A stretch of 64,000 bases of DNA from an uncultured Saprospiraceae bacterium (GTDB lineage: Bacteria; Bacteroidota; Bacteroidia; Chitinophagales; Saprospiraceae): assembly GCA_964646645.1 (NCBI GenBank), contig CAZYHJ010000006.1, positions 4,717 through 68,716 of the forward strand. Direction: 5' to 3'. Positions 2,608 through 34,423 of the stretch are shown here, in pieces. The position numbers and the translations under genes were made by a program. The notes under the pieces were generated by a model. The model searched no databases, was not told where the DNA came from, and saw only the letters and a program-made list of their open reading frames with translations. Position 1 is the first letter of the stretch. Each line of letters opens with the position of its first letter.

Positions 2608-4302
2608 ATGAGTTCAGAAACCAAGCCCAAAGAGGTCAATATCGACCTCGAGATCGCTCAGAATGCTCCTATACGCCATATCCGTACGATTGCCGAGAAA
2701 CTGGGCATCACGGAGGATGACCTTGAATATTATGGGAAATACAAAGCAAAATTGCCTCATTCCCTGATCAATGAAGATAAGGTCAATCAATGCAATCTGA
2801 TCCTGGTGACGGCTATCAGCCCTACTCCTGCAGGTGAAGGAAAGACTACGGTATCTATCGGATTGACGGACGGTCTTAATAAGATCGGAAAGAAAGCCGG
2901 CGTGGCCCTTCGCGAGCCTTCCCTGGGACCAGTGTTTGGCATTAAAGGCGGAGCAGCCGGTGGAGGATATTCCCAGGTGATTCCCATGGTGGACATTAAT
3001 CTCCACTTTACCGGTGATTTTTCAGCCATTGAAAAAGCCAATAATCTCCTGGCGGCATTGATCGACAATGCGATCCAGTTTAAGAATAAGGCAGACATTG
3101 ATCCGCGTACCATCGTGTGGAAACGCGTCATGGATATGAATGACCGCAGCCTGCGGCATATCGTCATCGGTATCGGAGGTACGGCCAATGGCGTTCCACG
3201 GGAGGACGGTTTTAATATTACCGCGGCTTCTGAGGTGATGGCGATCGTTTGTCTTTCCAAAGATTTTGAAGATCTCAAGCGGAGGTTGGGCAATATTTTC
3301 ATCGGGTATACCTATGATAAGAAGCCGGTTTTCGCGCGCGAGATTAATGCCCAGGGCGCAATGGCCTTATTGTTAAAGGATGCCATCAAACCCAATCTTG
3401 TTCAAACGCTTGAAGGTAATCCGGCCATTATTCATGGTGGACCTTTTGCCAATATTGCGCAGGGAACCAACTCGATCATTGCTACCAAAACAGCCATGTC
3501 GCTTTGTGATTATGTCGTGACAGAGGCAGGTTTCGGCGCAGATCTTGGAGCAGAAAAATTCCTTGACCTCAAATGCCCTGTTGCCGGCATCAAGCCTAAA
3601 GCGATTGTGCTCGTGGCTACCATTCGCGCCCTTCGTCATCACGGAGGCGCAAAGAAGGAAGAATACAATACACCGGATCTTGGCAAGGTGAAAAAAGGTT
3701 TTGAAAACCTTGAGAAACACCTCGAGAATTGTAAAAAGTTTGGCCTCACTCCTGTTGTAGCCATCAACAGTTTTATCTCCGATAGCGCGGAAGAAATCGC
3801 CTACGTTCAGGAGCGTTGCCAGTCTCTGGGTGCGAAAGCAGTCGTATCAAAAGGATGGGCGCATGGTGGAGAAGGGACAAAGGAACTCGCTCAGGCCGTT
3901 GTGGACGTCATTGCCGCCGGAGGTAATAACTACAAGCCACTCTATGACTGGACTCTGTCCATCGAGGAAAAGATCAAAAAAGTAGCTACTGAAATCTATG
4001 GTGCTTCACATATCGAGTACTCTGCTAAATCCAAATCGCAACTCAAGGAATTCGCACGCATTGGTTTTGATAAACTGCCAATCTGTGTGGCCAAGACACA
4101 GAAATCATTTTCGGATGATGAACGAAAGATTGGTCGTCCAACGGACTTTACCATCACCATTCGTGAGTTTGAAGTAGCAGCCGGCGCGGGTTTTGTGGTA
4201 CCCATCCTGGGTGAAATGATGCGTATGCCGGGCTTGCCTGCGATCCCAGCGGCTGAGGGTATGGACATTGATAATGATGGAACTATTACCGGACTTTCCT
4301 AA
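2608..4302 (+). CDS. fhs: formate--tetrahydrofolate ligase
   Basis: 564 aa, PTPAGEGKTT P-loop signature, full-length FTHFS-like sequence. Confidence 0.97.
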   Translation: MSSETKPKEVNIDLEIAQNAPIRHIRTIAEKLGITEDDLEYYGKYKAKLPHSLINEDKVNQCNLILVTAISPTPAGEGKTTVSIGLTDGLNKIGKKAGVALREPSLGPVFGIKGGAAGGGYSQVIPMVDINLHFTGDFSAIEKANNLLAALIDNAIQFKNKADIDPRTIVWKRVMDMNDRSLRHIVIGIGGTANGVPREDGFNITAASEVMAIVCLSKDFEDLKRRLGNIFIGYTYDKKPVFAREINAQGAMALLLKDAIKPNLVQTLEGNPAIIHGGPFANIAQGTNSIIATKTAMSLCDYVVTEAGFGADLGAEKFLDLKCPVAGIKPKAIVLVATIRALRHHGGAKKEEYNTPDLGKVKKGFENLEKHLENCKKFGLTPVVAINSFISDSAEEIAYVQERCQSLGAKAVVSKGWAHGGEGTKELAQAVVDVIAAGGNNYKPLYDWTLSIEEKIKKVATEIYGASHIEYSAKSKSQLKEFARIGFDKLPICVAKTQKSFSDDERKIGRPTDFTITIREFEVAAGAGFVVPILGEMMRMPGLPAIPAAEGMDIDNDGTITGLS

Positions 4303-4337: not shown

Positions 4338-4580
4338 TCAATGTTCTTTTTTTATCTGGTCTGCATCAGGATGTAAGTCCCTTTGCATCCTTTTAAAGCT
4401 ATTTGCCATCCGGATACCTATAAGTAAGGAAGCGATTAGAATGGTTCCGCCCAGTATAAGGCCATAAACATTGTTCATTTTCAGATATACGATTCCTCCG
4501 ATGATCAGCCCTATCAGCATCGGCGAGAGCACTATCCTGCACCACACCAGGATCTCCATGATAAGCGTCGACAGATTCAT
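4338..4580 (-). CDS. small membrane protein (2 TM), unknown function
   Basis: 80-aa ORF with two hydrophobic helices; no recognisable family. Confidence 0.4.
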   Translation of the reverse strand: MNLSTLIMEILVWCRIVLSPMLIGLIIGGIVYLKMNNVYGLILGGTILIASLLIGIRMANSFKRMQRDLHPDADQIKKEH

Positions 4581-4785: not shown

Positions 4786-4815
4786 ACAACTATCCAACTC
4801 AAATCATCATTTATA

Positions 4816-4831
4816 CTGACCCTTGTCATTT
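4816..4831 (+). promoter_or_regulatory. candidate Crp/Fnr-type operator CTGACCCTTGTCATTT (TGAC-N4-GTCA)
   Basis: 15/16 identical to 9658-9673. The -7-like element cATTTTTG at 4852-4859 lies 36 nt downstream, the same spacing as the second copy. Confidence 0.45.
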
Positions 4832-4898: not shown

Positions 4899-5342
4899 AT
4901 GTCACTCATCAAATGGAATGATCCAATGAAGCTGATGGGGAAGAGGAACTGGGTTGAGAACTTCTTTGCGGAAACCGATGATTTCCTGAAAAACTGGAAT
5001 TGGGATGTCTCTCAGGATGTTCCGGCCGTCAATGTGAAGGATGAAAAAGATTTCTTCATGATTGATGTGGCTGCTCCGGGAATGAAACGGGAAGATTTCA
5101 AGGTGGAAGTCGACAGAGGAGTTTTGATCATCAGCGCTACTACTGAAGAGAAGAAAGAGGAGAAGACGGAGAACTTTAAACGTCAGGAGTTCAGTTACCG
5201 CAATTTCAAACGTTCTTTCTGGCTGCCGGAAAATATAATGCCCGACAAAATCGAGGCCCATTATGAAGATGGCATCCTGAAATTGAAACTGCCCAAAATG
5301 ATGGAAATACCTGAAAAGGTACAGACGATAAAAGTGGTGTGA
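4899..5342 (+). CDS. Hsp20/alpha-crystallin small heat-shock protein
   Basis: 147 aa with an alpha-crystallin domain (PAVNVKDEKDFFMIDVAAPGMKREDFKVEV...EDGILKLKLPK). Confidence 0.95.
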   Translation: MSLIKWNDPMKLMGKRNWVENFFAETDDFLKNWNWDVSQDVPAVNVKDEKDFFMIDVAAPGMKREDFKVEVDRGVLIISATTEEKKEEKTENFKRQEFSYRNFKRSFWLPENIMPDKIEAHYEDGILKLKLPKMMEIPEKVQTIKVV

Positions 5343-5351
5343 TTTCAAATG

Positions 5352-5382
5352 CCGGGGTTCGGCGACGGGCCCCGGTTTTTTT
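5352..5382 (+). terminator. rho-independent terminator after hsp20
   Basis: ccgggg/ccccgg stem followed by a T7 run (ccggggttcggcgacgggccccggttttttt). Confidence 0.7.
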
Positions 5383-5419: not shown

Positions 5420-5842
5420 ATGGATACCAGCAGACCCGTTTCCGAGATCATGACAAAGCACCTGGTGACCGTTAAACCGGAAGATACCATTGATCGAATC
5501 CATGATCTCTTTGAAAAACACACCTTTCACCACATTCCGGTGGTGGAGAAGAACAAGCTCGTCGGGATCATCTCCAAAACCGACTATGTAAAAATTCGGC
5601 ACATGTTGGCCACCACCTGGTCCGGGGAGACTATTTGCCAGGATATGTATAAGGATATGTGTGCCGGGGATATCATGTCCCGGGAACCCCTTAAAGTGGA
5701 ACCGGCCGATACGATAGGCCTTGCCGCGGATATATTCCGTGCCAATGCCTTACATGCCCTTCCGGTGGTCGAAGAGGGTGAGCTCGTTGGTATAGTTACC
5801 TCTCATGATTTGCTCAATTACGCATACCAGGGCATGCTCTGA
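5420..5842 (+). CDS. CBS-pair domain protein
   Basis: 140 aa, two CBS motifs (HHIPVVEKNKLVGIISKTD; HALPVVEEGELVGIVTSHDLL). Confidence 0.85.
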   Translation: MDTSRPVSEIMTKHLVTVKPEDTIDRIHDLFEKHTFHHIPVVEKNKLVGIISKTDYVKIRHMLATTWSGETICQDMYKDMCAGDIMSREPLKVEPADTIGLAADIFRANALHALPVVEEGELVGIVTSHDLLNYAYQGML

Positions 5843-5890
5843 TTTGCGTTATGCTTATAGTGATTTTCTGATTTATAAATTTTGCTCGTC

Positions 5891-6337
5891 ATGGACAAAT
5901 GGATAGCTGTCAAGCATATTATGACCACTGACCTGGTGACTGCCGATCCGGATGAAGTGCTGGATTCCGTTAAGCACAAGTTGATCTCCAATCACATCCA
6001 GCATATTCCGGTCGTCGAAGGGAAGAAAATACTGGGCATCATCAGTATCAGCGATATGCGACGGATGGAGCATCACTTTACCTTATTTAAATCTGAAAAG
6101 GCTTTGGAAAGCAATCGACAGATTTTTTCCACGATTCTGGCTTCAGAAGTGATGACCAAATCATTGGTCAAGTTGAAGGACACAGACACGGCGTCCATTG
6201 CCGTGGACCTCTTTCGGGAGAATTTGTTCCATGCCCTTCCGGTCGTCAATGACAAAGATCACCTGGTCGGGATGATCACTCCGCTGGATCTGTTAAAATA
6301 TGCCTTTGATGAAAAACCTCCATTAGAGGAAAGTTGA
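5891..6337 (+). CDS. CBS-pair domain protein
   Basis: Two CBS motifs (QHIPVVEGKKILGIISISD; HALPVVNDKDHLVGMITPLDLL). First ATG is at 5891; the listed 5882 start is TTG. Confidence 0.85.
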   Translation: MDKWIAVKHIMTTDLVTADPDEVLDSVKHKLISNHIQHIPVVEGKKILGIISISDMRRMEHHFTLFKSEKALESNRQIFSTILASEVMTKSLVKLKDTDTASIAVDLFRENLFHALPVVNDKDHLVGMITPLDLLKYAFDEKPPLEES

Positions 6338-6349: not shown

Positions 6350-7183
6350 ATGAAGATCCTGTTCCCCACTGATTTTTCTACAACGGCAGAAAATGCCTTT
6401 ACCTACGCGATCAAGCTTGCCGACCGTCTCAAAGCTTCCATTACCGTGGTGCATGTCTACGAGTTGCTTCAGTTGCATACCTGGATAGAAGGGGCCACCA
6501 ATATGAACGATCTCAATGAAAAAGTCACCATTGGTGAGTTTGAACATTTCAGGGAACAGATTGACACGTTGAAACGAATAGCCCGCGAAAATCAACTGGA
6601 GCATATTGAAGTAGATTATGTGTTGAAGGAATCAGATTATGTCATTGAAGCCATACAACAGGAAGCAATGACCAACGGAGCGGATTTGATTGTGATGGGG
6701 ACCAAAGGCGCCAGAGGATTAAAGGAAATCTTTTTTGGAAGTGTGGCCACTAAGGTCATGGAGACAGCCCCTTGCCCTGTATTTGTAGTACCTGAAACGG
6801 CCCATTTTAAAGGCATACAGAAAATCGGGCTAACGCTGGAATATAAGCCGGTGGAATATGACCTGATTGAAAAGGCGCTGAGGCTGACCCGTCGGTTGGG
6901 CGGTCACCTGCATTGTGTTCATATTGACAATTATGACGATGAACAGAAGCGATTAGCCTTCCAGGATTACCGGAAGACGTTTGAAGCGGAGCAGGATATA
7001 AGTTTTCACATCCATCACGATCCTGATACGGAAAAGGGAATACTGGATTTCATGAAATTTAATCAGATGGATGTCATTGTGATGTATGTTCATCCCCAGT
7101 CGTTGCTGAAGGATATTTTTTCCTTTAGTATTGCCAAGCGGGTAGCCTATCACAGCGATATTCCCATCCTGGGAATTCATTAA
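6350..7183 (+). CDS. tandem universal stress protein (2x UspA domain)
   Basis: 277 aa. KILFPTDFS...ITVVHV, GADLIVMGTKGARGLKEIFFGSVATKVMETAPCPVFVVP, and a second Usp half ending in DIPILGIH. Confidence 0.9.
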   Translation: MKILFPTDFSTTAENAFTYAIKLADRLKASITVVHVYELLQLHTWIEGATNMNDLNEKVTIGEFEHFREQIDTLKRIARENQLEHIEVDYVLKESDYVIEAIQQEAMTNGADLIVMGTKGARGLKEIFFGSVATKVMETAPCPVFVVPETAHFKGIQKIGLTLEYKPVEYDLIEKALRLTRRLGGHLHCVHIDNYDDEQKRLAFQDYRKTFEAEQDISFHIHHDPDTEKGILDFMKFNQMDVIVMYVHPQSLLKDIFSFSIAKRVAYHSDIPILGIH

Positions 7184-7190: not shown

Positions 7191-7233
7191 TAGGGACAGG
7201 TAGGGATATGTAGGGGCAGGTCGCGACCTGCCC
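7191..7233. repeat. decamer word repeat (tagggacagg) ending in a 20-nt perfect palindrome
   Basis: tagggacagg tagggatatg taggggcagg; gggcaggtcg|cgacctgccc at 7214-7233. Confidence 0.6.
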
Positions 7234-7251
7234 TTGTGAAATTTTGATAAT

Positions 7252-7296: not shown

Positions 7297-8322
7297 TCAA
7301 TTGTGGATGATGATATCCGATCCCTGGATGGATACCAATCCTTCTTCTTTAAATTCCGAAAGGCAGCGGATAATGGTTTCTTTGGCTGTGCCGGCCATAC
7401 TGGCCAGATCTTCGCGAGCGACCGGGATGACCGCGGTGCCATTTTCAAGGTAAAATGCGTGGAGGTCCACGAGGGTAGCGGCCAGTTTCATCCGCACAGA
7501 GCCGAAGGCCTGAAGCAGGAGTTTTTCATCCGCCTGAAGTTGGTTATTGGCCATTTCCTGGAGAAAATAATACGCGATGGAAGGATGATGCAAGACGAAT
7601 GAGATAAAATCATCCCGCTTGATCGGAATCAACTCAAGGTCCTCAAAAGCCTTTACCGTTTCCTGGTATTTGGTGCCTGAGAAGGCAGAGGATACACCAA
7701 CGATCATCGGGTACTGATATAGCCGGGTCACCACTTCTTTTGCGTAGTTGTCAATTTTAGTAGCGATCGCCCTTCCGGATTTTATGGCAAAAACAAAACG
7801 ACAGGTTTGACCTTCGGCAAACAGCAGATCCTTTTTCCTGACCATCCTTGTTTCACTATCCAGGAGGGATTCCGGAAGAGTCTGCATCACTTGTTCTGCG
7901 GTAGGCAGGTTGACTATGGAAGCAGCGACTCCGGCATGTCCCTGATGCGATCTGTGCTTATTTAGTCTGAATTCAATTGTGTTGAGTAACTCAACATCAT
8001 CAAAGGGTTTGGTGATATAATCATCTGCCCCCAATGTCATGCCCCGTCTGACATCAGTCAATTCGGTCTTAGCGGTAAGGAATAAAAATGGGATCATTGC
8101 CGTGGCTTCATTTTTGGACAGAATCCGGAGCACGGTATATCCATCCATTTCCGGCATCATGATATCACAGAGGATCAGATCCGGTACATGTGCAACAGCT
8201 GCTTCCACCCCTAATTTACCATTAGGGGCTGTAACAGTTTCGTATCCGGAGAGCGTCAACAATTCGCTCAGATTTTCTCTGACGTCATTGTTGTCTTCGA
8301 TGACCAGGATTTTATTTTTCAT
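7297..8322 (-). CDS. response regulator with REC domain fused to Crp/Fnr-type effector domain and HTH
   Basis: REC: KILVIEDN, DLILCDIMMPEMDG, KPF. C-terminal cNMP-binding-like barrel plus HTH REDLASMAGTAKETIIRCLSEFKEEGLV. Start taken at MKNKILVIEDN, overlapping the kinase stop by 11 nt. Confidence 0.9.
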   Translation of the reverse strand: MKNKILVIEDNNDVRENLSELLTLSGYETVTAPNGKLGVEAAVAHVPDLILCDIMMPEMDGYTVLRILSKNEATAMIPFLFLTAKTELTDVRRGMTLGADDYITKPFDDVELLNTIEFRLNKHRSHQGHAGVAASIVNLPTAEQVMQTLPESLLDSETRMVRKKDLLFAEGQTCRFVFAIKSGRAIATKIDNYAKEVVTRLYQYPMIVGVSSAFSGTKYQETVKAFEDLELIPIKRDDFISFVLHHPSIAYYFLQEMANNQLQADEKLLLQAFGSVRMKLAATLVDLHAFYLENGTAVIPVAREDLASMAGTAKETIIRCLSEFKEEGLVSIQGSDIIIHN

Positions 8323-9649
8323 AGCTAAGTGGTAGGGTGATATAAAAGGTGGTGCCTTTGCCTTGTTCACTTTCGAACCTGAGCGTGCCCTTCAGGGTGT
8401 GAAGATAGGATAAGACGATATTTAAACCCAAACCGGTTCCTGGAACGTTCACGGCATTTGAAGCTCTGAAAAATCTGGAGCCGATATGTTTCTGGTCCTC
8501 CGGGGGTATGCCCATGCCTTCGTCCGCGATGATCATCTGGAGGAGGCCCTCTTCAATGAAAATGGTGCATCTGACCTTAGTCCCTGCTTCCGAGTACTTG
8601 ATGGCATTGGAAATCAAATTATAGAGAATATTCCGGAGGATGTTTTTATCGGTTTTCATCTCCAGATCATCAAAATCGTGATGGCAGAGAAACTGCTGTT
8701 GTTGCTTCAATAGCCCGTCTACATCGGCTTTAAGCTCAGAGAGAAGTCCATGGACAGAAAAGGTGCTTATGACCGGTACAAATTGACCTTCTTCCAACCG
8801 GGTGATCGAAAGAAAGTCCATGAGAATATTGTTGAGATGGGAGACACTTGATTTTATACGCTCCACGTGACGATTGCGGTCGGCGTCCTGTTCGGTAGTC
8901 GTGTATTTGGATATCAGTGCGGCAGAAGAAAGGATACTTGCGAGCGGTGTCTTAAACTCATGAGAGGCCATGGACACAAATCTCGATTTGAGCGAACTCA
9001 ACTCCTTCTCCTTTTCCAGGGATTTATGCAGTTCATCCCTTGCCGCCACCAGGGCGGTTTCATAAATTTTATGCTTTTCAATCGACTCATTGAGTTGTCG
9101 GTTAGTATCCAGGAGCAAGTTGACCGTATCCTGTAGTTCTGTTGTACGTTCGATGACCAACTGCTCAAGCTCATGATTTAATTTGATGATTTCATCCTGC
9201 ACTTTTTTCATAGGCGTGAGATCCTGCAGGATGCCTGTGAAAAAGTGGTTTTGATCGACGATGATTTCGCTTACCGCCAACCGGACCGGAAACAGGGTGC
9301 CGTTTTTTCTCCGGCCTTCGACTTCGCGGCCGATTCCAATGATCTGTTTATGACCAGTCGAGAGATAATTTTCCAGGTAGTGGTCATGGCCTTCTCTATG
9401 GGGAGATGGCATGAGCATGGATACATTTTCACCAATTAATTCTTCGATGGAATACCCAAAGAGGTGGGTCACCGCAGAATTAGCCATGTGAATCCTCCCT
9501 CTGGTATCAATGACGATAATACCATCGATTGCCGTTTCCACCACAGATTCAAGGACATGTGCGGAGTTGGCATGGGGAAATGTATAAAAGTCAGACACAG
9601 GGCTAAGATATCCATTGTCTATCGCGCGGGCAATGCTGACTATAATCAA
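8312..9649 (-). CDS. soluble PAS sensor histidine kinase, FixL-like heme-PAS type
   Basis: PAS with LMPSPHREGHDHYL...IIGIGREV...FTGILQDLT. H-box SHEFKTPL, N-box NAIKYS, G-boxes DEGMGI and GTGLGL. The start is TTG (9649) or GTG (9598); there is no ATG upstream of the PAS. Confidence 0.9.
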   Translation of the reverse strand: MIIVSIARAIDNGYLSPVSDFYTFPHANSAHVLESVVETAIDGIIVIDTRGRIHMANSAVTHLFGYSIEELIGENVSMLMPSPHREGHDHYLENYLSTGHKQIIGIGREVEGRRKNGTLFPVRLAVSEIIVDQNHFFTGILQDLTPMKKVQDEIIKLNHELEQLVIERTTELQDTVNLLLDTNRQLNESIEKHKIYETALVAARDELHKSLEKEKELSSLKSRFVSMASHEFKTPLASILSSAALISKYTTTEQDADRNRHVERIKSSVSHLNNILMDFLSITRLEEGQFVPVISTFSVHGLLSELKADVDGLLKQQQQFLCHHDFDDLEMKTDKNILRNILYNLISNAIKYSEAGTKVRCTIFIEEGLLQMIIADEGMGIPPEDQKHIGSRFFRASNAVNVPGTGLGLNIVLSYLHTLKGTLRFESEQGKGTTFYITLPLSYEK

Positions 9650-9657
9650 TTTATTGG

Positions 9658-9673
9658 CTGACCCCTGTCATTT
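9658..9673 (+). promoter_or_regulatory. candidate Crp/Fnr-type operator CTGACCCCTGTCATTT (TGAC-N4-GTCA)
   Basis: Near-identical to 4816-4831. A perfect TAnnTTTG (TACCTTTG, 9694-9701) lies 36 nt downstream. The site is 9 nt upstream of the kinase TTG start on the other strand. Confidence 0.45.
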
Positions 9674-9862
9674 TGACCTTTTATCCTTTCAAATACCTTT
9701 GAGAGGGTGAGTTTTGCATGAGGGGTAAGTATAATGTAATCCCGATTTCCATCGACACCTTGCTTTTTTGGCGCATACGTTTTTTATATTAAAAAATAAT
9801 TAATGCGTTAATAGACAGATTGTCAATCAATTAGATTTTATCACACCAATTTTTATAACACA

Positions 9863-10303
9863 ATGGATTTTACAGCACCTGTTTCAAAATGGATGACCAC
9901 CAAAATGGTCACTGTGGTTCCGGGAGATTCGGTTTCCGTGGTCAAGGATATTTTTGACCAGCAACGGATTCACCATATCCCGGTCGTGAAGTATCGTACC
10001 CTGGTTGGATTGATCAGTAAATCTGATTTTCTCCATTTTCTCAGGGGTATGGAGACCACCCCTTATGACAAGTTGGTTGAAAAAAGCCGGCTTGAGCATT
10101 ATAAGGCAGAAGATATTATGACTACGGGACTGGCGACACTTGAGCCCAATGAAAGGCTTAACGTGGCCCTTCAACTTTTTAGTGAGAACCTTTTTCATGC
10201 CATTCCCATTGTCGAGAAGGAGGAGTTAGTGGGTATCCTCACCACATTTGATATTATCAGAGCATTGGTAGAGGAAGATAATAAACGAATTAAATCAACC
10301 TGA
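9863..10303 (+). CDS. CBS-pair domain protein
   Basis: 146 aa with HHIPVVKYRTLVGLISKSD and HAIPIVEKEELVGILTTFDII. Confidence 0.85.
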   Translation: MDFTAPVSKWMTTKMVTVVPGDSVSVVKDIFDQQRIHHIPVVKYRTLVGLISKSDFLHFLRGMETTPYDKLVEKSRLEHYKAEDIMTTGLATLEPNERLNVALQLFSENLFHAIPIVEKEELVGILTTFDIIRALVEEDNKRIKST

Positions 10304-10307: not shown

Positions 10308-11423
10308 ATGCAATGCTCTAATGCCATTGAAGCAATGAATATAGAGTTGTATAGTATTCGCGGGTTTACAGGAAGTGCGCTGAAGCAGAAGCTTGAGCGC
10401 GAGTTGGTGGCGCACCATATGCATGTACCGGTGGATGAGATCAACCAGGTCGACCGATTCATCAAAGCTGGGCTGGTGGCTGTTCCTGCATTTAAGATTG
10501 GGGACAAGGTGATCCAGCATCCGCATAATGGAGATGTCGAAGAGACCGTCAGGAATGTAATGGATTATATCCTCGCGGAGCATTTGAACAACATTCTTGT
10601 GCCGGTTGATTTTTCCGAAGGGTCCTTCAATGCCATCGCATTCGCCAGAGCTATTGCGGTCAAAATGGGCTATGGTATAACACTGGTGCATATTCACCAG
10701 ACGCTTTATGATCCCATTTCCGCAGGGGCCCTGGATGTACAATTGCTGAAGGATGTCAATACCCGTCTCCAGCAGTTAGTGGAGGAACTCAGCGTGCAGG
10801 CTATTTCGGATGGGCAAGATATTCATTTCAATGCCCATATGGAAGTAGGGGAGACCTCCAGCAGTCTGATTGAATTGCTGGATCATGGAAAATATGAAAT
10901 GATGGTCATGGCTACCAAATCCACCGATAATGCCATGCGCAGATTTTTTGGAACCGTGTCTTCAGAAGTCAGCCGAAGAAGCCATAAGCCTGTGGTCGTT
11001 ATTCCGCCTCATACTGAAGCGAAGTTTCCCGGAAAGTTAGTCATTGGATTTACCGAAGAACTATTTCATGAAAATGTATTGGATGATATCATTGAATTTG
11101 GCTGCATGAATAATGCTTTTTTTGATTTCATCCATATCACCAATGACCAGCACCATTTTGAGCGTTTGAAGGATAAATTGTACCAGCGGCTCGTGACTAA
11201 GCGCGATTTACTTTGCGGTTTCAATATCAAATGCCTGGAGGGGGATGATGGAAAAGTACATGAGAAGATCTCTCGGTACGCAAATGAAGTACGCGCCGGT
11301 ATGATTGTTCTCGTGACGCATCAGAGAAAGTTCCTGGAAGCATTGAGGCATGAAAGCGTAACCAAAAAGGCCCTTCATCACCCTGAACTTCCGATCCTGA
11401 TTATACACCAGGCAAAAGATTGA
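10308..11423 (+). CDS. tandem universal stress protein with N-terminal thioredoxin-fold-like extension lacking CxxC
   Basis: N-terminal ~90 aa resemble small Thioredoxin_3-type proteins (IELYS...VPAFKIGDKVI) but have RGFTGS where CxxC is expected. Two Usp domains follow (ILVPVDFSEGS..., MMVMATKS..., PILIIH). Alternative start at 10335. Confidence 0.8.
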   Translation: MQCSNAIEAMNIELYSIRGFTGSALKQKLERELVAHHMHVPVDEINQVDRFIKAGLVAVPAFKIGDKVIQHPHNGDVEETVRNVMDYILAEHLNNILVPVDFSEGSFNAIAFARAIAVKMGYGITLVHIHQTLYDPISAGALDVQLLKDVNTRLQQLVEELSVQAISDGQDIHFNAHMEVGETSSSLIELLDHGKYEMMVMATKSTDNAMRRFFGTVSSEVSRRSHKPVVVIPPHTEAKFPGKLVIGFTEELFHENVLDDIIEFGCMNNAFFDFIHITNDQHHFERLKDKLYQRLVTKRDLLCGFNIKCLEGDDGKVHEKISRYANEVRAGMIVLVTHQRKFLEALRHESVTKKALHHPELPILIIHQAKD

Positions 11424-11432: not shown

Positions 11433-13946
11433 TCAGACAGGAGACGAAACGCGTTTTATTGCTTTGACCGCTTCAAACCAAAATACTGAAAGGGCCGCTA
11501 CGCCTGTACAAATCAGGATGTCCTTCCAGTGTGGGGTAGCCAGTTGGAAAAAAGCAGTGATGGGCTTGAAATAGAGCATGGAGCTCAGGATCAGTAGGGT
11601 CAGCCCGATAATTCCGTAAAGTAATTTATTGTTGTAGCGCAGCGTAGTCAGAAAGGAGTAATAAAACGATCTGTTGACAAGCGTCAGGAATATATTAGAG
11701 ATGATCAGCGTAGAGAAAACCATCGTTCTTACATAGGTTTCCGTACCACCTCTCCACAGTGAAAACTGGTATATAGCCAGCACGCCTGCTGTAATCATTA
11801 AGCCTTGCAATATGCTCATGCCCAGTTCTCTGAAGTTGAGAAATGTCTCTGTCATACGACGCGGAGGCTGCTGCATCGTATTGGCTTCCATGGGTTCATT
11901 TTCAAATACAATGGAGCAGGTAGGCCCCATGACCAGTTCAAGAAAGATCACATGTACCGGCGTGAAAATATCAGGGTAAACCCATCCCAAAAAAAGTGGA
12001 AGGGATACCGTAAGGATAATCGGAATATGGATCGAGATGATGTATTGGATCGCCTTCTTGAGATTGGCATAAATTCGTCTGCCGGTGGCAATTGCTGATA
12101 CCAGTTTGCCGAGATCGTCGTTCAGGATAATAAGGGCGGCCGCGTTTTTAGCCATTTCGGTTCCCTTTTGCCCCATGGCGATTCCTATATGCGATGATTT
12201 TAGCGCAGGACCGTCGTTGACTCCATCCCCCAACATCGCCACGATTTGCTGATCTTGTTTCAGCGCATTTACAGCGGCGAGTTTGGCTTCAGGATACATG
12301 CGGGTAAACAATGCTTTTTCGGCGACGGTCCTCACAAAGGCAGACTCATCCATCCTCATGAGTTCCTCCCCATCTACGGCTTCACCTGTATTTTTAAGTC
12401 CCGCTTTTAACGCAATCGCTTTTGTAGTCTCCGCGTTGTCACCGGTGATGATCTTGACCTTGATGCCTGCTTCCTCAAATTGCCTGAATACATTTTCAAT
12501 CCCTGTTTTGGGGGGATCATAAAAGATAACAAGCCCAATAAAGGAAAAATTAAAATCACGCTGGTCATCGGGAAATTCATGGCCACTATATTCAGCCCTG
12601 GCTACCCCTAACATCCTGTATCCCTTTGCGGCAAGTGATTGTAACGTGTCAATGATTTTACTCCGTTGTGCGGGAGATAATCCACAGGCTTGAAGGATGG
12701 CTTCCGGGGCGCCTTTGGAGGCAATGATTCTGCGTCCTGCCTTGTCCTCAAAAATATGGGTCATCATAGGCGGTTGACCACCCAGCGGATATTCATGCGC
12801 CATGGTGAAATCATCCCGCTGATCTTCGCTGATATACATTTCGTATGCCTGATGGATCGACTTTTCCATCGGATCAAATGGATTTGGTTCGCTTGCCCAC
12901 ATGGCTGCCTCTATGACGTTCATGCCTTTGTTGGCGAAGGCATCAACTTCCATGATCAGGTGGTCATGTTCAAAATCATATACCCCGATGAGGCTCATCC
13001 TGTTCTCGGTAATGGTACCTGTCTTATCCGAGCAAATGACGGTAGCGCTCCCTAAAGTTTCCACCGTTCTTGTTTTCTTGACGATGACTCCATCTTTCAT
13101 CAGACGACGTGAACCAAGCGCCATAAACGTCGTAAAGGCTACGGGGATTTCTTCAGGCAAAATGGACATGGCCATGGTGAGGCCTTTGAGCAGGCTTGCG
13201 AGGATATTTTTACTTTCGGCAAACTGTACGGCCCACACCATGAGAAAAACCAGGATCCCCACAAGCGCCATTTTTTTGACAAACGATTCTATTTGTTGTT
13301 GCAGTGGGGTGGGTTCTTCCCGTATCTCCACCATCGACTTTCCGATCTGGCCGATACGTGTTGAGCTGCCTGTTTTATCCACCTGATATACAGCCAATCC
13401 GGAAGAGGCTAATGTCCCACTGTATACCCGTGGGTCCGAACTTGATGTTGATTTGAAAATAGCCTGCGCCTCACCGGTCAGAGCGGACTCATTGACCGAA
13501 AAATCATTGGAATGGACGATCACACCATCCGCATTAATCGTTGCACCCTCTTCTGCCAGGACAAGATCACCCGGAACGATTTCGGTGGTCAGAATATGCT
13601 GCGGCTCTCCATTGCGAATGACTTTGCTCAGCGGTGTATTCAATGCTTCCAGCGCCTCCAGCGCCTTCCGGCTGCGATTGTCCTGATAGAAAGAGATGCC
13701 GGAGACAATCAATATCGCAGCCAGCATGAAATAGGCCTCTCCCAACTGTCCCATCCAGATATAGATCAACGCGATAGCCAGCAATAGCAGCAACATCGGT
13801 TCACGCATGATCTCAAAAAGCACGTGCCACCAAGTACGTTTTGCTTTCTGATGTTGAATGTTCAGCCCGTATTGTTTTCTCAATGACAAGACTTCCGCAT
13901 CTGAAAGACCGGTGAGATGAGAAGGAATGTTGAGCCGGGTGGACAT
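11433..13946 (-). CDS. cation-transporting P-type ATPase (P2-type, Ca2+-ATPase-like)
   Basis: 837 aa: DKTGTITEN phosphorylation site, TGDN, GDGVNDGPALK hinge, PEEIPV in TM4, Cation_ATPase_N-like start. Confidence 0.95.
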   Translation of the reverse strand: MSTRLNIPSHLTGLSDAEVLSLRKQYGLNIQHQKAKRTWWHVLFEIMREPMLLLLLAIALIYIWMGQLGEAYFMLAAILIVSGISFYQDNRSRKALEALEALNTPLSKVIRNGEPQHILTTEIVPGDLVLAEEGATINADGVIVHSNDFSVNESALTGEAQAIFKSTSSSDPRVYSGTLASSGLAVYQVDKTGSSTRIGQIGKSMVEIREEPTPLQQQIESFVKKMALVGILVFLMVWAVQFAESKNILASLLKGLTMAMSILPEEIPVAFTTFMALGSRRLMKDGVIVKKTRTVETLGSATVICSDKTGTITENRMSLIGVYDFEHDHLIMEVDAFANKGMNVIEAAMWASEPNPFDPMEKSIHQAYEMYISEDQRDDFTMAHEYPLGGQPPMMTHIFEDKAGRRIIASKGAPEAILQACGLSPAQRSKIIDTLQSLAAKGYRMLGVARAEYSGHEFPDDQRDFNFSFIGLVIFYDPPKTGIENVFRQFEEAGIKVKIITGDNAETTKAIALKAGLKNTGEAVDGEELMRMDESAFVRTVAEKALFTRMYPEAKLAAVNALKQDQQIVAMLGDGVNDGPALKSSHIGIAMGQKGTEMAKNAAALIILNDDLGKLVSAIATGRRIYANLKKAIQYIISIHIPIILTVSLPLFLGWVYPDIFTPVHVIFLELVMGPTCSIVFENEPMEANTMQQPPRRMTETFLNFRELGMSILQGLMITAGVLAIYQFSLWRGGTETYVRTMVFSTLIISNIFLTLVNRSFYYSFLTTLRYNNKLLYGIIGLTLLILSSMLYFKPITAFFQLATPHWKDILICTGVAALSVFWFEAVKAIKRVSSPV

Positions 13947-13948
13947 AG

Positions 13949-14141
13949 CGTGAATGGTGAGTTGTGAGTTGTGAATTGTCAGTTGTGAGTGGTCAATGCG
14001 TTGTGTTAACTATGAAGTCCCCTTCAGGCGTCGTGCTGAGCGGAGTCGAAGTAGGATTTAGGGGCCAAAGTATCGTGAGTTGTGAGCAGTGAAACTTGAG
14101 TCGTAATTCGTAATTACTAATTCGTAATTACTAATTCGTAA
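13949..14141. repeat. mosaic of heptamer word repeats filling the SulP-ATPase intergenic region
   Basis: (gtgagtt/gtgaatt/gtcagtt)n at 13949-13994; the gaagtcccctt...ggatttaggggcc element at 14024-14065; (tcgtaat/tactaat)x6 at 14101-14142 abutting the SulP stop. Confidence 0.8.
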
Positions 14142-14144
14142 TTT

Positions 14145-15716
14145 TTAATGTAATTCAATCGTCTCTACCTCTGGTATATTAATCATCTTCAGTTGAATAT
14201 GTTTACGATGTGCTTTGGATTTAAAGTCGTGGAAAATTTCAAGAATATCCTGGTCAATATAAACACTGTCTGCTCCATTGATTTCCACAACAGCATATTC
14301 GGGGATCTTGTCCAGCATTTCCATGATCCTTTTTTTATTGATAAAGCTCACATTGAGGGCCAGTTCGATGACATAATGCTTCATGTGGCCATCATGCTTT
14401 TCCTTGATGACATAACCGGCCTTGATCGTGTTCTTTATCAGGAAGTACACGGCATAGGTGATACCAATCAGTACGCCAATGAGAAGATCGGTAGCCAGAA
14501 TCGCAATGACGGTGACTAAGAAAGGAATAAACTGTTCGCGTCCTTGTTTATAGATGGCTTTGATCATCGAGGGTTTGGCTAGGTTGTATCCGGTACGCAC
14601 CAGGATGACCGCCAGTACACAATATGGAATCAGATTAATGAGTGGGATCGCAACGACTATGGCCAGCAACAACCATATACCGTGCATAAATGCTGAAAGC
14701 CTTGTCCTGGCACCAGCTTCAGCATTGGCTGAACTTCTCACAATCACCGCGGTAATAGGGAGTCCGCCTAATAATCCACTCAGAAAATTACCGGTGCCCT
14801 GGGCAACGAGTTCGCGATTTTGTGGCGTGATCCTGTTTAGTGGATCGAGTTTGTCGACCGCCGTGATGCTGAGCAAGGTCTCCAGTGACGCCACAAAGCA
14901 AATGACCACCGCATTTTGCCAGATCAGTCCATTACTAAAGATTTGATTGAAGTCTGCCGGTTTGATCTGACGAAGTATATCATGAGGAATATTGACGAAT
15001 TGCGATGGCTTGATCTGTGTAGTTGTAAATAATTGATTAAATGCAATGGCCAGGAGAATCCCCGAAAGCACCGTAATGAAGGAGGTGGGCAGAAAACTGA
15101 TTTTTGCGGCGATGTACTTTTTCCAGAGAATCAGGATCAGTAAGGTCATAACAGAGATCGTAACAGCTCCTGTCGAAGTATGGTGATATAAACTTCCAAT
15201 GCCGTGAAATCCGTTTTTGAAGGTGATCAGATTAAAAATTTCATTGGTCCAGAAATCTGGTTGGTCATACCCCACAAGTAGGGGGATCTGTTTGGAGATG
15301 AGGATAATCCCGATCGCGGTCAGCACGCCTTTGATGACGGCCGATGGAATGAAATGGGTAAAACCACCTAATCTGAAGATGCCGAGTAATACCTGTAAGA
15401 GTCCGGCAACAGCCACTGAAACAAAGAAGATTTCTATTGCGCCTAATTCGGTAATCGCAGTCGCGCATATCGCCGTAAGGCCAGCCGCAGGTCCGCTGAC
15501 ACTGAGTTCTGATTTGCTGATCAGTGAGATGATGATTCCACCAATGATACCCGCCAGAATACCTGAATACACCGGAGTACCCGATGCCAGCGATACACCC
15601 AAACAAAGTGGAAGGGCAACGAAGAAAACCGTGATACTGGCCTTAAAGTCATGACGACTGAAGGTAAGCCAATAGTATCGAATCTTTCGTGGATTCCAGA
15701 TCCTGGCAAAATCCAT
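14145..15716 (-). CDS. SulP family anion transporter with C-terminal STAS domain
   Basis: 523 aa, multi-TM Sulfate_transp-like core (LPLCLGVSLASG, VAQGTGNFLSGLLGGLPIT) plus a soluble C-terminal STAS-like domain. Confidence 0.88.
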   Translation of the reverse strand: MDFARIWNPRKIRYYWLTFSRHDFKASITVFFVALPLCLGVSLASGTPVYSGILAGIIGGIIISLISKSELSVSGPAAGLTAICATAITELGAIEIFFVSVAVAGLLQVLLGIFRLGGFTHFIPSAVIKGVLTAIGIILISKQIPLLVGYDQPDFWTNEIFNLITFKNGFHGIGSLYHHTSTGAVTISVMTLLILILWKKYIAAKISFLPTSFITVLSGILLAIAFNQLFTTTQIKPSQFVNIPHDILRQIKPADFNQIFSNGLIWQNAVVICFVASLETLLSITAVDKLDPLNRITPQNRELVAQGTGNFLSGLLGGLPITAVIVRSSANAEAGARTRLSAFMHGIWLLLAIVVAIPLINLIPYCVLAVILVRTGYNLAKPSMIKAIYKQGREQFIPFLVTVIAILATDLLIGVLIGITYAVYFLIKNTIKAGYVIKEKHDGHMKHYVIELALNVSFINKKRIMEMLDKIPEYAVVEINGADSVYIDQDILEIFHDFKSKAHRKHIQLKMINIPEVETIELH

Positions 15717-15721
15717 AGAAT

Positions 15722-16117
15722 CTATGTTTTAGCATGTTTGTACAAATAAAGGCCAATCAGGAATAAAGCTACACCAATACTTCCATAGAGCAGCTGGAGA
15801 TAGGAGTACTGCCGGATCATCAGCATCTGTACCAGGATCCATCCTGATAAGATGATGCCTTCTGCAAGGATCAGCCATGTATAATGCTTCCAACGAAGAG
15901 CGGTCCAAACCAGCGCCACGATGGACAATATACCATTGAAGGTGAACAGGATAATGCCTGGGATCAGAAAATCTTTAAACGGACTGTGTTCAAGAAAGGT
16001 GACCGGCATTTGAAGGTCACTGCCTGTAGGATCCATGATCAGGCTCCAGCCTCCAAATATTGCACTTACGCCATTAAAAAGTAAGAGTATCAATGCAAGA
16101 ACGTTAAGTGTTTTCAT
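15722..16117 (-). CDS. membrane protein (4 TM), unknown function
   Basis: 131-aa hydrophobic ORF, 5 nt upstream of the SulP start; likely co-transcribed. Confidence 0.5.
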   Translation of the reverse strand: MKTLNVLALILLLFNGVSAIFGGWSLIMDPTGSDLQMPVTFLEHSPFKDFLIPGIILFTFNGILSIVALVWTALRWKHYTWLILAEGIILSGWILVQMLMIRQYSYLQLLYGSIGVALFLIGLYLYKHAKT

Positions 16118-16165
16118 GATTCAAGTGTTGAAAATAAGAAAATGATCTTGCTCTTGTAATTGCTA

Positions 16166-16846
16166 TCAGGCATTCCATTTTCTCGATTTAAGAAAAATGG
16201 CTAGCATCAACATGATCATCCAGATATTCCAAAAGAGATAGAGTCCCATACCTGTCGATGTCAGCACCCAACCCGGTTCCAGTATTGTCCATATCGGACT
16301 GATCATACTGATGAGCCCATTCCCAATCATCAACCACTTAATGAAGTTGCTTTTATTTTGATAAAAAGTTGCTCCAGCCCATGTCGCCCATCCCAGAAAG
16401 CAATATCCCCACATTTCATTGGCCCAACAAAAGGATTCAGGATTGGCCATGGATAACCCTGCAATCAGGCTTTCATATTCTGGCCGAAAGTCTTCCACCA
16501 GATTTGGAATAAAACTAATTTGACAAACATAATTGAATGCAATCAACCCCAGAAATACGATAGTCAGGGCAAGGGAAATGACCATTGAAGGTCTGATTTG
16601 TTTTGTGGAAGTAAAATCATAGGATAAATGACCCACAGCCAGTAGTAGCATTCCTGCAAGAATGAGAAATCCAAGATAGTAGGGAAGGGACTGGATTGGA
16701 TGATAATAGGTAATGTATTGAGAAACCGTCAGCCAATCAGGTTGTGGATGAGTGATCAAGACTATTGACACTGCCATTGGGCCAGAGCAAAAAAATCCAA
16801 TCAAACTAATAAGCGCCCCTGCCCTAATCATTTTTAAAGCTTTCAT
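16166..16846 (-). CDS. membrane protein (multi-TM), unknown function
   Basis: Hydrophobic ORF. First ATG (MKALKMIRAG) is at 16846; the listed start at 16888 is TTG. Confidence 0.5.
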   Translation of the reverse strand: MKALKMIRAGALISLIGFFCSGPMAVSIVLITHPQPDWLTVSQYITYYHPIQSLPYYLGFLILAGMLLLAVGHLSYDFTSTKQIRPSMVISLALTIVFLGLIAFNYVCQISFIPNLVEDFRPEYESLIAGLSMANPESFCWANEMWGYCFLGWATWAGATFYQNKSNFIKWLMIGNGLISMISPIWTILEPGWVLTSTGMGLYLFWNIWMIMLMLAIFLKSRKWNA

Positions 16847-16971
16847 TCGCACTGGTAGTTTAATCAAAGCCAATGGCAATTTAACCAACTACTGCATTAA
16901 AATTCAATTCCCGCTGAACGATAAAACCAATTTCTGCTGTCAAGTTTAATCTTAATCTAAAATAAAATATC

Positions 16972-17005
16972 TGATATCCGTCACCAGATAAGATGACAAT
17001 AGTCA
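16972..17005. promoter_or_regulatory. pair of TGA-N6-TCA palindromes (TGATatccGTCA, TGACaataGTCA), 22 bp centre to centre
   Basis: Read directly. The minus-strand -7-like element TAAACTTG (16941-16948) is 29.5 bp from the proximal box centre, as at hsp20 and cbs. Confidence 0.3.
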
Positions 17006-27346: not shown

Positions 27347-27847
27347 TCAATAGGATTTCGGTTTGTCTATGGCTTTGAATTGGTCCGCGTAATACTGGTA
27401 CAGGTCGGGATGGGTTTTAGCCATTTTAGCCAGGAAACTAATCCTTGCTTTTTGCAGTGTATTGATTTGCGTCTGCAGGGAGAGCATTTTTACAGAGAGC
27501 AGACTATCCTGATGTCCGGCTTGTTGAACAAACGATTGTACTTCGGGTGGAAGTGATGTATAGGACATGAACATTTGAATGTGGTCAGCATTGCGGGCCT
27601 CGAGCAGCAGTTTCCTGTCGATCGATGGGAAATCAGACGGAAGTAATTGGTTCAGGGTAAAAGAGGTGGTATCCCAAAGGCTATCCGTCATCATGCTGAG
27701 ACGATTAAGATCGGTCTGGAGTTGCAAGGTTGATGTAATTAGGAGGTCCCCTTCTTCTTTCACATTGTTTTCCTGGCCACACGATATGCATATCAAAGCG
27801 ATAGGGTAGAGTAGGAAGAGTTGAAAGAGGAAAACTAGAAACTTCAT
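27347..27847 (-). CDS. putative lipoprotein, unknown function
   Basis: Signal peptide plus Cys (LICISCGQ); 29 nt upstream of the haloperoxidase-like gene. Confidence 0.5.
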   Translation of the reverse strand: MKFLVFLFQLFLLYPIALICISCGQENNVKEEGDLLITSTLQLQTDLNRLSMMTDSLWDTTSFTLNQLLPSDFPSIDRKLLLEARNADHIQMFMSYTSLPPEVQSFVQQAGHQDSLLSVKMLSLQTQINTLQKARISFLAKMAKTHPDLYQYYADQFKAIDKPKSY

Positions 27848-29904: not shown

Positions 29905-30089
29905 CGGAATAATATTTTATTAAAGTTCATCCCGGGCACTCAAAATCCCTATGATGTCAATCATTTGCCTGTGTGAGGTCAGTCATATGAAATTTATTAG
30001 TATTTCATTTGGTTTATGATACTATAGATGGGTGCTTTATCATCCAGTATGGAGGGATGTGTATGCATCTCAATTTTATACAACGAACA

Positions 30090-34408: not shown

Positions 34409-34423
34409 ATCTAAGTAAAAAGT

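Follow-up and report, generated by a model that had tools for sequence, protein, structure and literature searches.

Does a kinase gene in the genome of an uncultured Saprospiraceae bacterium encode an oxygen sensor of the FixL type, and if so, through which regulator and on which genes would it act? The question is raised by a stretch of 64,000 nucleotides (GenBank assembly GCA_964646645.1, contig CAZYHJ010000006.1, positions 4,717 to 68,716; hereafter the window), in which a preliminary description made from the letters alone had recognized the heme-pocket signature of rhizobial FixL in the PAS domain of a histidine kinase. Having analyzed the kinase gene (8312-9598, minus strand) together with the response regulator gene that follows it (7297-8322), we consider it probable, at roughly 0.6, that the two form an O2-responsive two-component system which compresses the FixL-FixJ-FixK cascade to one step and whose regulon resembles those of FixK and DosR. 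This reading is built on observed domain architectures, on the conservation of pocket and catalytic residues, on the pairing of the two genes, and on the enrichment, phasing, and placement of a short palindromic DNA box. The coordinates of all features are collected in Table 1.

The sensor domain and its predicted heme pocket

In a phmmer search of all Protein Data Bank (PDB) sequences, the FixL heme domains ranked first, with the S. meliloti entry 1d06 at E 1.4e-29 and the B. japonicum FixL (BjFixL) entries 1dp6, 8js5, 2cmn, and 1y28 at E ~1e-26. The alignment runs over about 120 residues without gaps, the FixL heme domains span E 1e-29 to 1e-25, and at the level of sequence the match exceeds chance by far. 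The assignment of this PAS segment to the FixL heme-PAS type, first made by inspection, was thereby borne out. An AlphaFold2 (AF2) model of kinase residues 1-146 had a predicted local distance difference test (pLDDT) value of 81.8, and its best 20 Foldseek matches in the PDB were all FixL heme domains with 41-46% identity, followed by EcDOS/DosP. The root-mean-square deviation (RMSD) from FixL was 0.7-1.4 Å, except for 8js6_C (1.7 Å) and 1d06 (3.1 Å), while the single-domain BjFixL entries gave 0.7-1.2 Å with target-normalised TM-scores of 0.94-0.96. The predicted PAS fold is thus superposable on the FixL heme domains, and the histidine and arginine proposed earlier as heme ligand and O2 contact fall on the corresponding FixL positions both in the alignment and in the comparison of the model with the PDB structures; the failure to superimpose that the preliminary description had named as grounds for refuting it did not occur.

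Residue n of the window kinase (428-aa numbering) corresponds to BjFixL residue n+129. The histidine of the HDSY motif is His200 in the standard BjFixL numbering, a number that was reproduced by counting along the alignment. On this scale, His71 corresponds to His200, Tyr74 to Tyr203, Asn77 to Arg206, Tyr78 to Tyr207, Gln85 to His214, Ile86 to Ile215, Arg91 to Arg220, Leu107 to Leu236, and Val109 to Ile238. Conservation was assessed in the 120 closest database sequences of the kinase (48-91% identity). The residues at BjFixL positions His200, Ile216, Gly217, Gly219, Arg220, Gly229, Phe232, Leu236, and Gly251 are invariant in this set; Tyr203 and Tyr207 are each present in 119 sequences, Ile215 in 118, and position 238 is Val in 118. 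The window kinase therefore has the proximal His of the F-alpha helix (His71), and in Arg91, Ile86, Leu107, and Val109 it has the counterparts of Arg220 and of the distal Ile215, Leu236, and Ile/Val238, which are conserved in 118-120 of the 120 homologues.

The propionate-contacting side of the pocket differs from FixL. The replacement of Arg206 by Asn (Asn77), pointed out in the preliminary description, was confirmed by the alignment and proved to be the family norm, since Asn occupies this position in 98 of the 120 homologues; Lys at position 214 accompanies Asn206 and is likewise found in 98. Positions 206 and 214 covary among 157 FixL-type sequences (Fisher p = 1e-12, uncorrected for phylogeny), a pattern noted for the kinases of P0001-P0120 and of loci L001-L044. 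Lys214 accompanies a non-basic residue 206 in 109/126 sequences, as compared with 6/31 sequences with Arg or Lys at 206; the usual pairings in the family are Asn206 with Lys214, or Arg206 with His/Arg214, and one or both positions are basic in 151/157. Two side chains that both serve the propionates of a heme would be expected to covary in this way, and the pattern is thereby indirect evidence that the heme pocket is real. The window kinase itself has neither of the basic propionate-contacting residues (Arg206, His214) and carries Asn77 and Gln85 in their place. Gln at position 214 is rare in the family, and Lys84 adjoins Gln85. As both residues are non-basic, heme affinity or ligand coupling may differ in the window kinase. 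The closest relative, P0001 (91% identity), combines Arg206 with Gln214, as against Asn/Gln in the window, so that the difference at 206 looks, from the two sequences, like a very recent change of the pocket. Furthermore, PDB entry 2cmn is the crystallised heme domain of the BjFixL variant R206A, and the loss of Arg206 alone therefore need not abolish heme binding. From the conserved residues, we infer that the kinase PAS domain binds heme. The natural swap between Asn206/Lys214 and Arg206/His214 offers ready variants with which the coupling of ligand binding to signalling through the propionates can be examined.

Start codon and domain organization of the kinase

The open reading frame (ORF) reported previously at 8312-9649 of the minus strand is real, and the 72-residue PAS peptide quoted from it corresponds to residues 58-129 of the 428-aa form (9212-9427, minus strand). 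The first in-frame ATG falls within the PAS core (RIHMANS), so none lies upstream of it, as had been stated. Of the two start codons then considered, GTG 9598 was retained and TTG 9649 was not. A length of exactly 428 aa is shared by 66/120 homologues, whose N-termini (MSL..., MSP...) align to GTG 9598, and relatives annotated as longer carry Met at this position (e.g., P0011, ...RYLSP-M-SLATHF). In addition, the 51 nt separating the two codons contain the conserved operator box 9637-9648. Because 66 of the 120 homologues begin at GTG 9598 and the box lies between the two codons, GTG 9598 was taken as the start; homologue lengths, homologue N-termini, and the box together rule out TTG 9649.

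By Pfam, the kinase consists of one PAS domain (E 7e-17), HisKA, and HATPase_c (E 5.5e-25). The earlier statement that it has no transmembrane segment agrees with our prediction, the maximum Kyte-Doolittle mean over 19 residues being 1.36. In the AF2 model, a helix runs from residue 128 to the end of the modelled fragment, and a coiled-coil-type Pfam match spans residues 158-280 in the numbering of the 445-aa form. The kinase boxes SHEFKTPL (with His213), NLISNAIKYS, DEGMGIP, FFRA, and GTGLGL are intact and invariant across the family. The protein thus has the H-box His and the N, G1, F, and G2 boxes of a HisKA-type sensor histidine kinase.

The partner response regulator

The ATG of the regulator gene overlaps the stop codon of the kinase gene by 11 nt, and the same overlap was observed in the related locus L001. 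The start at ATG 8322 (MKNKILVIEDN) agrees with the homologue N-terminus MKxKILIIEDN, by which GTG 8370, the start given in the ORF list, was ruled out. The protein joins a receiver (REC) domain to an effector-like barrel and a helix-turn-helix (HTH) of the Crp/Fnr type. Among 109 full-length homologues, Glu9, Asp53, and Lys105 of the receiver are conserved in 100%, Asp10 in 99%, and Thr83 in 71%; the acidic pocket, Asp, Thr/Ser, and Lys of a two-component response regulator are accordingly present. The C-terminal 200 residues match CRP, FNR, FixK2, and NtcA in a PDB sequence search, and in Foldseek they match the folds of GlxR, MtbCRP, and CRP with target-normalised TM-scores of 0.7-0.8. The AF2 model of the regulator (pLDDT 85.6) contains a helix at 247-273. 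The C-terminal half thus shows the barrel, the long dimerisation helix, and the HTH with Glu/Arg contacts of the Crp/Fnr family. Its residues K314/E315/R319 presumably align with CRP R180/E181/R185 and FNR E209/R213, and the columns that we take to be those of the cAMP-contacting CRP residues Glu72/Arg82 are occupied by Val210/Gln220. Neither a phosphate-binding cassette for cyclic nucleotide monophosphates (cNMP) nor an FNR-type Cys cluster was found in the regulator; its N-terminus, where such a cluster was looked for, is the REC domain. Sequence and Foldseek searches of the PDB returned no chain covering receiver and Crp module together. The public names of the homologues are generic ("response regulator", "CheY-like/CRP-like").

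Kinase-regulator pairing across Bacteroidota

A locus scan with one genome per species returned 80 loci, which are distributed over Saprospiraceae, Chitinophagales, Pedobacter, Mucilaginibacter, Arcticibacter, Sphingobacterium, Flavobacterium, Salinimicrobium, Dyadobacter, Larkinella, Hymenobacter, and other groups. Pairing was counted over 85 Bacteroidota loci, and in about 73 of them the kinase gene is directly followed by a full-length REC-Crp gene; the exceptions are mostly truncated contigs. A strict regular expression of the FixL signature matched only 36/85 loci; the remaining kinases therefore represent a different PAS subtype and were not pooled in the pocket analysis. Type A sensors have the FixL-type pocket, LMPxP....HDxYxxxY......IIGIGR, and include the window kinase and those of Saprospiraceae, of many Pedobacter/Mucilaginibacter genomes, and of some Flavobacterium genomes. 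Type B kinases, which are paired with the same family of REC-Crp regulators, carry the signature LIPxxxxxxHxxxRxxFxxxPxxRxMGxGRDLxGxRKDGxEFPVEISL, with His in the column of the FixL proximal His, an invariant Met in that of Ile216, and a variable residue in that of Arg220. This Met is reminiscent of the distal ligand Met95 of EcDOS; judged by sequence, type B may sense through a six-coordinate heme or may lack heme. The FixL-type version is present in several cultured strains, among them Pedobacter terrae DSM 17933 (locus L030), Flavobacterium subsaxonicum DSM 21790 (locus L026), and Arcticibacter svalbardensis MN12-7, so the predictions are directly testable.

A candidate paired operator upstream of the kinase operon

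The starting clue to an operator was two near-identical strings upstream of the HSP20 and kinase genes, which yielded TGAC-N4-GTCA; this motif occurs 8 times in the window, as compared with 0.83 expected. An unbiased dyad scan, which took in every 4- and 5-mer palindrome at spacers of 0-10, was then run over the 300 bp upstream of the kinases. Excluding A/T runs, the top dyads were ATGA-N6-TCAT, TGAT-N4-ATCA, and TGAC-N4-GTCA, and the consensus is aTGAy-N4-rTCAt. An exact TGAY-N4-RTCA box was present within 200 bp upstream of 44/83 kinases and of 123/840 other ORFs (odds ratio 6.6, p = 2e-14). The control set consisted of the other ORFs of at least 150 aa in the same loci; as true regulon members are among them, the contrast errs on the conservative side. 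By comparing the distances between boxes, a strict phasing was observed: 34 of the 50 pairs within 80 bp are spaced exactly 22 bp and 3 are spaced 23 bp, whereas six control motifs gave no peak at 22 bp. The window contains 22 single boxes (6.9 +/- 2.6 expected), two exact tandem pairs (0 expected), and four pairs when up to two mismatches are allowed (0.37 expected). Boxes 22 bp apart would sit on the same face of the helix, and it is plausible that dimerisation of the receivers bridges two Crp-type dimers.

The tandem pair in front of the kinase gene is shared with the divergent CBS-Usp genes (Usp, universal stress protein) and precedes them by about 200 bp. Both of its boxes are found at the same place in L001, L002, L006-L010, and L018, and boxes upstream of HSP20 also occur in L001 and L026. 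The canonical FNR box TTGAT-N4-ATCAA was considered as well and rejected; with up to two mismatches it gave 87 matches against 64 expected, and there was no concentration at the island promoters. A sigma-70 promoter scan of the window found 22 sites against 29 expected, which says little because Bacteroidota promoters deviate from the sigma-70 consensus.

The gene island and its candidate regulon

Around the kinase, the genes for HSP20, CBS, Usp, cation ATPase, SulP, and TPR proteins form an island whose synteny is shared by metagenome-assembled genomes of Saprospiraceae. Synteny with the kinase was observed for the ATPase and SulP genes in L001 and L002 and for the TPR gene in L001; CBS and Usp genes flank the kinase-regulator pair even in multi-PAS relatives of 50% identity. 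Relatives retain the divergent CBS gene, and seven related type-A loci have tandem boxes between the kinase and the CBS gene. Including the window, tandem pairs precede the kinase operon and the divergent CBS gene in eight type-A loci, and in three more the kinase operon alone was identified behind them. Elsewhere, tandem pairs precede Usp genes (L004, L008, L018, L042, L046), HSP20 (L026), FixS/CcoS (L010), the CcoN-CcoO fusion (L041, L045), and FixI/CcoI-type ATPases (L041, L045, L073), and in further loci ScdA/RIC, Rrf2, OsmC, DoxX, and TerB genes.

Strong hairpin terminators are found in the island at 5351-5376, directly after HSP20, and at 7209-7238, between the convergent Usp and regulator genes. 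The position of the former suggests that HSP20 is monocistronic. Whether the P-type ATPase gene belongs to the membrane-protein/SulP operon is uncertain because of a 198-bp gap. This gap (13947-14144) contains degenerate tandem repeats, GTGAGTT-like about five times and TCGTAATTACTAAT-like about three times, and no operator box. An 80-aa hydrophobic ORF (4338-4580, minus strand) is located in the long gap upstream of HSP20. Relatives have a membrane ORF of 71-83 aa between the kinase and the divergent CBS gene, beside the tandem boxes (L001, 9630-9878, and L002, 9613-9828, both on the minus strand); in the window, the place of this ORF is taken by a non-coding stretch of about 190 bp that contains a hairpin (9680-9711).

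Proposed pathway and alternative explanations

We hypothesize that the single FixL-type PAS domain of the cytoplasmic kinase holds heme b via His71 and that, upon O2 binding, Arg91 and the distal Ile/Leu/Val would shift the FG loop as in FixL. The long helical linker would relay this change to the DHp-CA core of the PhoR/WalK type. By analogy with FixL, the deoxy kinase would autophosphorylate His213, and the phosphoryl group would then pass to Asp53 of the translationally coupled regulator, in which the cNMP-binding residues have been lost. The phosphorylated regulator would bind TGAY-N4-RTCA boxes, typically two at a distance of 22 bp, and activate its own operon together with low-oxygen and stress genes. 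In the window, the targets would be HSP20, the CBS-pair proteins, the universal stress proteins, and the membrane-protein/SulP operon, possibly including the P-type ATPase; in other Bacteroidota, cbb3 oxidase and FixI/FixS would be added. The three rhizobial tiers of FixL, FixJ, and FixK would be reduced to one kinase and one FixJ/FixK-like hybrid regulator. We infer here that the signal is O2, that regulation has the direction given, and that the boxes are bound by this regulator. A broader version is offered tentatively and with some doubt: a phylum-wide O2 pathway of Bacteroidota might run from a FixL-type kinase to a REC-Crp dimer of dimers on paired boxes, and from there to micro-oxic respiration and DosR-like persistence genes, with type B kinases feeding the same regulator class.

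Several points weigh against the proposed O2 pathway. Its steps are derived by computation, from sequence, structure models, and analogy. The transmitter core of the kinase scores better against PnpS-, PhoR-, and WalK-type kinases than against FixL, so the sign of regulation is not simply transferable from FixL. Type-B loci supplied the cbb3, fixI, and most other respiratory targets, and the FixL-type loci show only FixS (L010), HSP20 (L026), Usp, and CBS targets. About half of the kinase upstream regions are without an exact box; moreover, some 14 of the window's 22 boxes are intragenic, and single boxes are therefore weak predictors. The window kinase also has neither of the basic residues that hold the propionates, a combination shared by only 6/157 relatives, whereas the closest relative P0001 still has Arg206. 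The PAS domain of the window kinase may on this account no longer bind heme tightly and be cofactor-less or differently liganded. We consider this very improbable, because the proximal His and all other pocket residues are intact, the R206A variant of BjFixL still crystallised as a heme domain, Lys84 stands next to Gln85, and the window kinase contains no Cys that could hold an Fe-S alternative.

A further point against the proposed pathway concerns the protein that binds the boxes. The window encodes a stand-alone Crp/Fnr regulator (ORF 25090-25824) whose recognition helix, ETIVR, is close to the ETIIR of the REC-Crp regulator; one box lies within the 5' end of its gene (25773) and another 292 bp upstream (26110). 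As TGA-N6-TCA cores are generic to the Crp/Fnr family, the boxes could serve this or a different stand-alone regulator, with the two-component operon being merely a target in a hierarchy of the FnrN/FixK type. On the other hand, the boxes track the kinase-regulator promoter in 44/83 loci from many families, as autoregulation predicts, and the strict 22-bp pairing points to a higher-order oligomer, with REC as an obvious interface. Neither observation is proof, but together they make the stand-alone regulator an unlikely binder in our view. The nature of the signal leaves slightly less room for an alternative. Heme-PAS and heme-GAF sensors bind O2, CO, and NO, and ScdA/RIC is a di-iron protein of Fe-S repair that is typically NO-induced. 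The kinase could therefore sense NO, CO, or the heme redox state, in which case the regulon would answer nitrosative or redox stress. Tandem boxes do precede ScdA/RIC and a regulator of the Rrf2 family in some relatives, and the propionate-contacting residues unlike those of FixL could alter ligand discrimination. However, these ScdA and Rrf2 cases sit in type-B and not in FixL-type loci. The O2-discriminating set of FixL, Arg220 with Ile215, Leu236, and Val238, can be called invariant if Ile215 and Val238, each found in 118/120, are counted as such, and cbb3 oxidase, FixI, and FixS are hallmark low-O2 genes. A signal other than O2 is thus rather improbable.

Novelty and significance

A full-text literature search, outside the scope of which were response-regulator censuses and subscription literature, found no description of a FixL-type kinase paired with a REC-Crp regulator in Bacteroidota. 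Receiver fusions are absent from the CRP/FNR meta-regulon paper, and a preprint on Flavobacterium RgzAB, considered as a prior description, was set aside since it concerns an unrelated GAF hybrid kinase. Several kinase homologues are labelled "sensor kinase FixL" by JGI, and the NCBI label is "PAS domain-containing sensor histidine kinase". A survey of PAS domains placed FixL and DosP in one heme cluster, where the histidine is retained by more than 9,700 sequences (10.1101/2023.04.23.537977). Given the JGI labels and this cluster, the predicted heme-PAS kinase in itself is not new. The sensor domain is of a known type and already auto-annotated as FixL-like; its wiring, operator architecture, and regulon appear undescribed.

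Bacteroidota are major members of communities in soil, water, and wastewater sludge and of host-associated communities, where oxygen gradients are steep. To our knowledge, their oxygen sensing is essentially uncharted. If the proposed pathway is true, a sensor, a regulator, an operator, and a first regulon would be identified for this phylum. It would moreover represent a new wiring of heme-PAS to Crp/Fnr, via phosphorylation rather than a ligand or an Fe-S cluster, in the form of a compact soluble two-protein O2 switch.

Other features of the window

A near-perfect 22-bp-phased pair of boxes separates a dienelactone-hydrolase-like gene (29254-29904, minus strand) from a gene for a PolX-family DNA polymerase (30009-31850, plus strand), and a 166-aa ORF that could not be annotated (27347-27847, minus strand) is preceded, at a distance of 86 bp, by a single box at 27927. 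Formate/C1 genes comprise a formate-tetrahydrofolate ligase gene at 2608-4302 and a cluster at 42656-54420, which encodes MoaA, MoeA, TauE, FdhD, an NAD-linked formate dehydrogenase (Nuo51-like subunit, 48818-50470; molybdopterin subunit, 50476-53220), and MoaC/MoaB. Genes for a Pst-type phosphate ABC transporter with PhoU (33677-37936, minus strand) are followed by a c-type cytochrome gene (38374-39333, plus strand). A TPR-repeat protein fused to a LytS-type His_kinase (PF06580; 60877-62772, plus strand) is followed by a 262-aa ORF (62781-63569), and the two are probably a separate two-component system.

Table 1. Coordinates of the kinase-regulator operon, the candidate operators, and the associated genes (window positions unless a related locus is named).
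Feature	Position	Strand	Basis or remark
Soluble sensor histidine kinase gene, 428 aa, GTG start	8312-9598	-	ORF, homologue lengths/N-termini, Pfam
FixL-type heme-PAS sensor domain (predicted), ~residues 17-128	9215-9550	-	PDB phmmer, AF2 + Foldseek
His71 codon, predicted proximal heme ligand (BjFixL His200)	9386-9388	-	Invariant in 120/120 homologues
Asn77 codon, position of BjFixL Arg206 (proximal, propionate-contacting)	9368-9370	-	Asn in 98/120 homologues
Arg91 codon, predicted O2-contacting FG-loop Arg (BjFixL Arg220)	9326-9328	-	Invariant in 120/120 homologues
Long helical (coiled-coil-like) PAS-DHp linker, ~75 residues	8984-9214	-	AF2 model, Pfam
DHp/HisKA domain	8786-8989	-	Pfam HisKA
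Predicted phospho-acceptor His213 codon (kinase H-box)	8960-8962	-	SHEFKTPL H-box
HATPase_c catalytic domain with N, G1, F, G2 boxes	8327-8650	-	Pfam E 5.5e-25, motifs
Response regulator gene, 341 aa: REC + Crp/Fnr effector-like barrel + Crp HTH	7297-8322	-	Pfam Response_reg, cNMP_binding, HTH_Crp_2
Predicted phospho-acceptor Asp53 codon of the regulator	8164-8166	-	Conserved in all 109 full-length homologues
DNA-recognition helix K314-E-T-I-I-R319 of the regulator (predicted)	7345-7383	-	Lys314, Glu315, Arg319 invariant
Candidate tandem operator pair TGACTATAATCA-N10-TGACCCCTGTCA	9637-9670	.	Centres 45 and 67 bp upstream of GTG 9598
Second exact tandem pair (candidate operator)	16972-17005	.	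90-112 bp upstream of ORF 16166-16888(-)
Perfect box 4817-4828 + degenerate partner 22 bp upstream	4795-4828	.	~76 bp before HSP20 ATG
Single box	6250-6261		94 bp before Usp (6350-7183)
Single box	18796-18807	.	97 bp upstream of TPR gene 17068-18705(-)
Near-perfect 22-bp-phased pair (1 mismatch)	29952-29985		In 104-bp gap between 29254-29904(-) and 30009-31850(+)
HSP20, candidate regulon member	4899-5342	+	Pfam; own terminator 5351-5376
Two CBS-pair genes, candidate regulon members	5420-5842, 5882-6337	+	Pfam
Usp, candidate regulon member	6350-7183	+	Pfam
Divergent CBS-pair gene, candidate regulon member	9863-10303	+	Pfam
Tandem-Usp gene, candidate regulon member	10308-11423	+	Pfam
Same-strand run below second tandem pair	11433-16888	-	
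P-type cation ATPase	11433-13946	-	Pfam
SulP transporter	14145-15716	-	Pfam
131-aa protein of no assigned family	15722-16117	-	
Membrane protein of no assigned family	16166-16888	-	
Stand-alone Crp/Fnr regulator, 244 aa	25090-25824	-	cNMP_binding + HTH_Crp_2, no Cys cluster
Type B kinase PAS domains (L036, L038, L040, L041, L045, L047-L085)	roughly 8150-8400 of each locus		

Comparison with known systems

The sensor of the window kinase is 41-46% identical to that of FixL from B. japonicum and S. meliloti (PDB 1DRM, 1DP6, 1D06, 8JS5), without gaps and at about 1 Å. The two share the proximal His, Tyr203/Tyr207, Ile215/216, Arg220, Leu236, and Val/Ile238, and the order PAS-DHp-CA is that of the cytoplasmic part of RmFixL. 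In contrast to FixL, the window kinase has one PAS domain, no membrane anchor, Asn for Arg206, Gln for His214, a helical PAS-DHp linker of about 75 residues, a core of the PhoR/PnpS/WalK type, and a partner other than FixJ. Against the NCBIfam equivalog model NF041777 (sens_FixL_Rhizob), it scored 155 bits, as compared with a cutoff of 850, and only model positions 124-255 (the heme PAS) matched. FixJ was only a weak match at the REC level, and the partner lacks the LuxR/NarL-type HTH of a cognate FixJ. Because of this score and the lack of a FixJ partner, the kinase is to be regarded, on its sequence, as FixL-like in the sensor domain only and not as an orthologue of rhizobial FixL. E. coli DosP (EcDOS), a member of the same heme-PAS clade, comes next after FixL both in structure and in sequence (E 1e-13, 24-26% identity); it differs in its distal ligand Met95 and its c-di-GMP phosphodiesterase output, while the pocket of the window kinase follows the FixL pattern.

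As in the FixJ-FixK and hFixL-FxkR-FixK systems, receiver phosphorylation would ultimately drive a Crp/Fnr-type factor on a palindrome with a TGA-N6-TCA core, and the targets include cbb3 oxidase (fixNO), fixI, and fixS. Unlike in FixJ-FixK, the receiver and the Crp/Fnr module are in one polypeptide, so that there is no LuxR HTH and no separate fixK is needed. FixK operators are single TTGA-N6-TCAA boxes, whereas the candidate operator here is aTGAy-N4-rTCAt, typically in 22-bp-phased pairs. With CRP, FNR, and GlxR, the regulator shares the fold of its C-terminal 200 residues and the base-contacting Glu and Arg; it differs in the N-terminal REC domain, which stands in place of cNMP or Fe-S control.

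The candidate regulon content recalls the DevS/DosT-DevR (DosR) dormancy system of M. tuberculosis, in which a heme gas-sensor kinase system stands over families of HSP20, CBS, Usp, and P-type cation ATPase proteins. The DosR regulon comprises hspX (HSP20), the CBS protein Rv2626c, several universal stress proteins, and ctpF, with tandem phased boxes at -42.5 and -63.5 (PMC3177182). Tandem, helically phased boxes are thus common to both systems, the phasing in the window island being 22 bp. However, the DosR sensors bind heme in GAF domains, the regulator is of the NarL/LuxR type, and the operator is unrelated; the window system, with a PAS sensor and a Crp-type regulator, does not belong to the DosR/DevR class. 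The resemblance to DosR lies in regulon content and promoter architecture and is one of convergence, not of homology.

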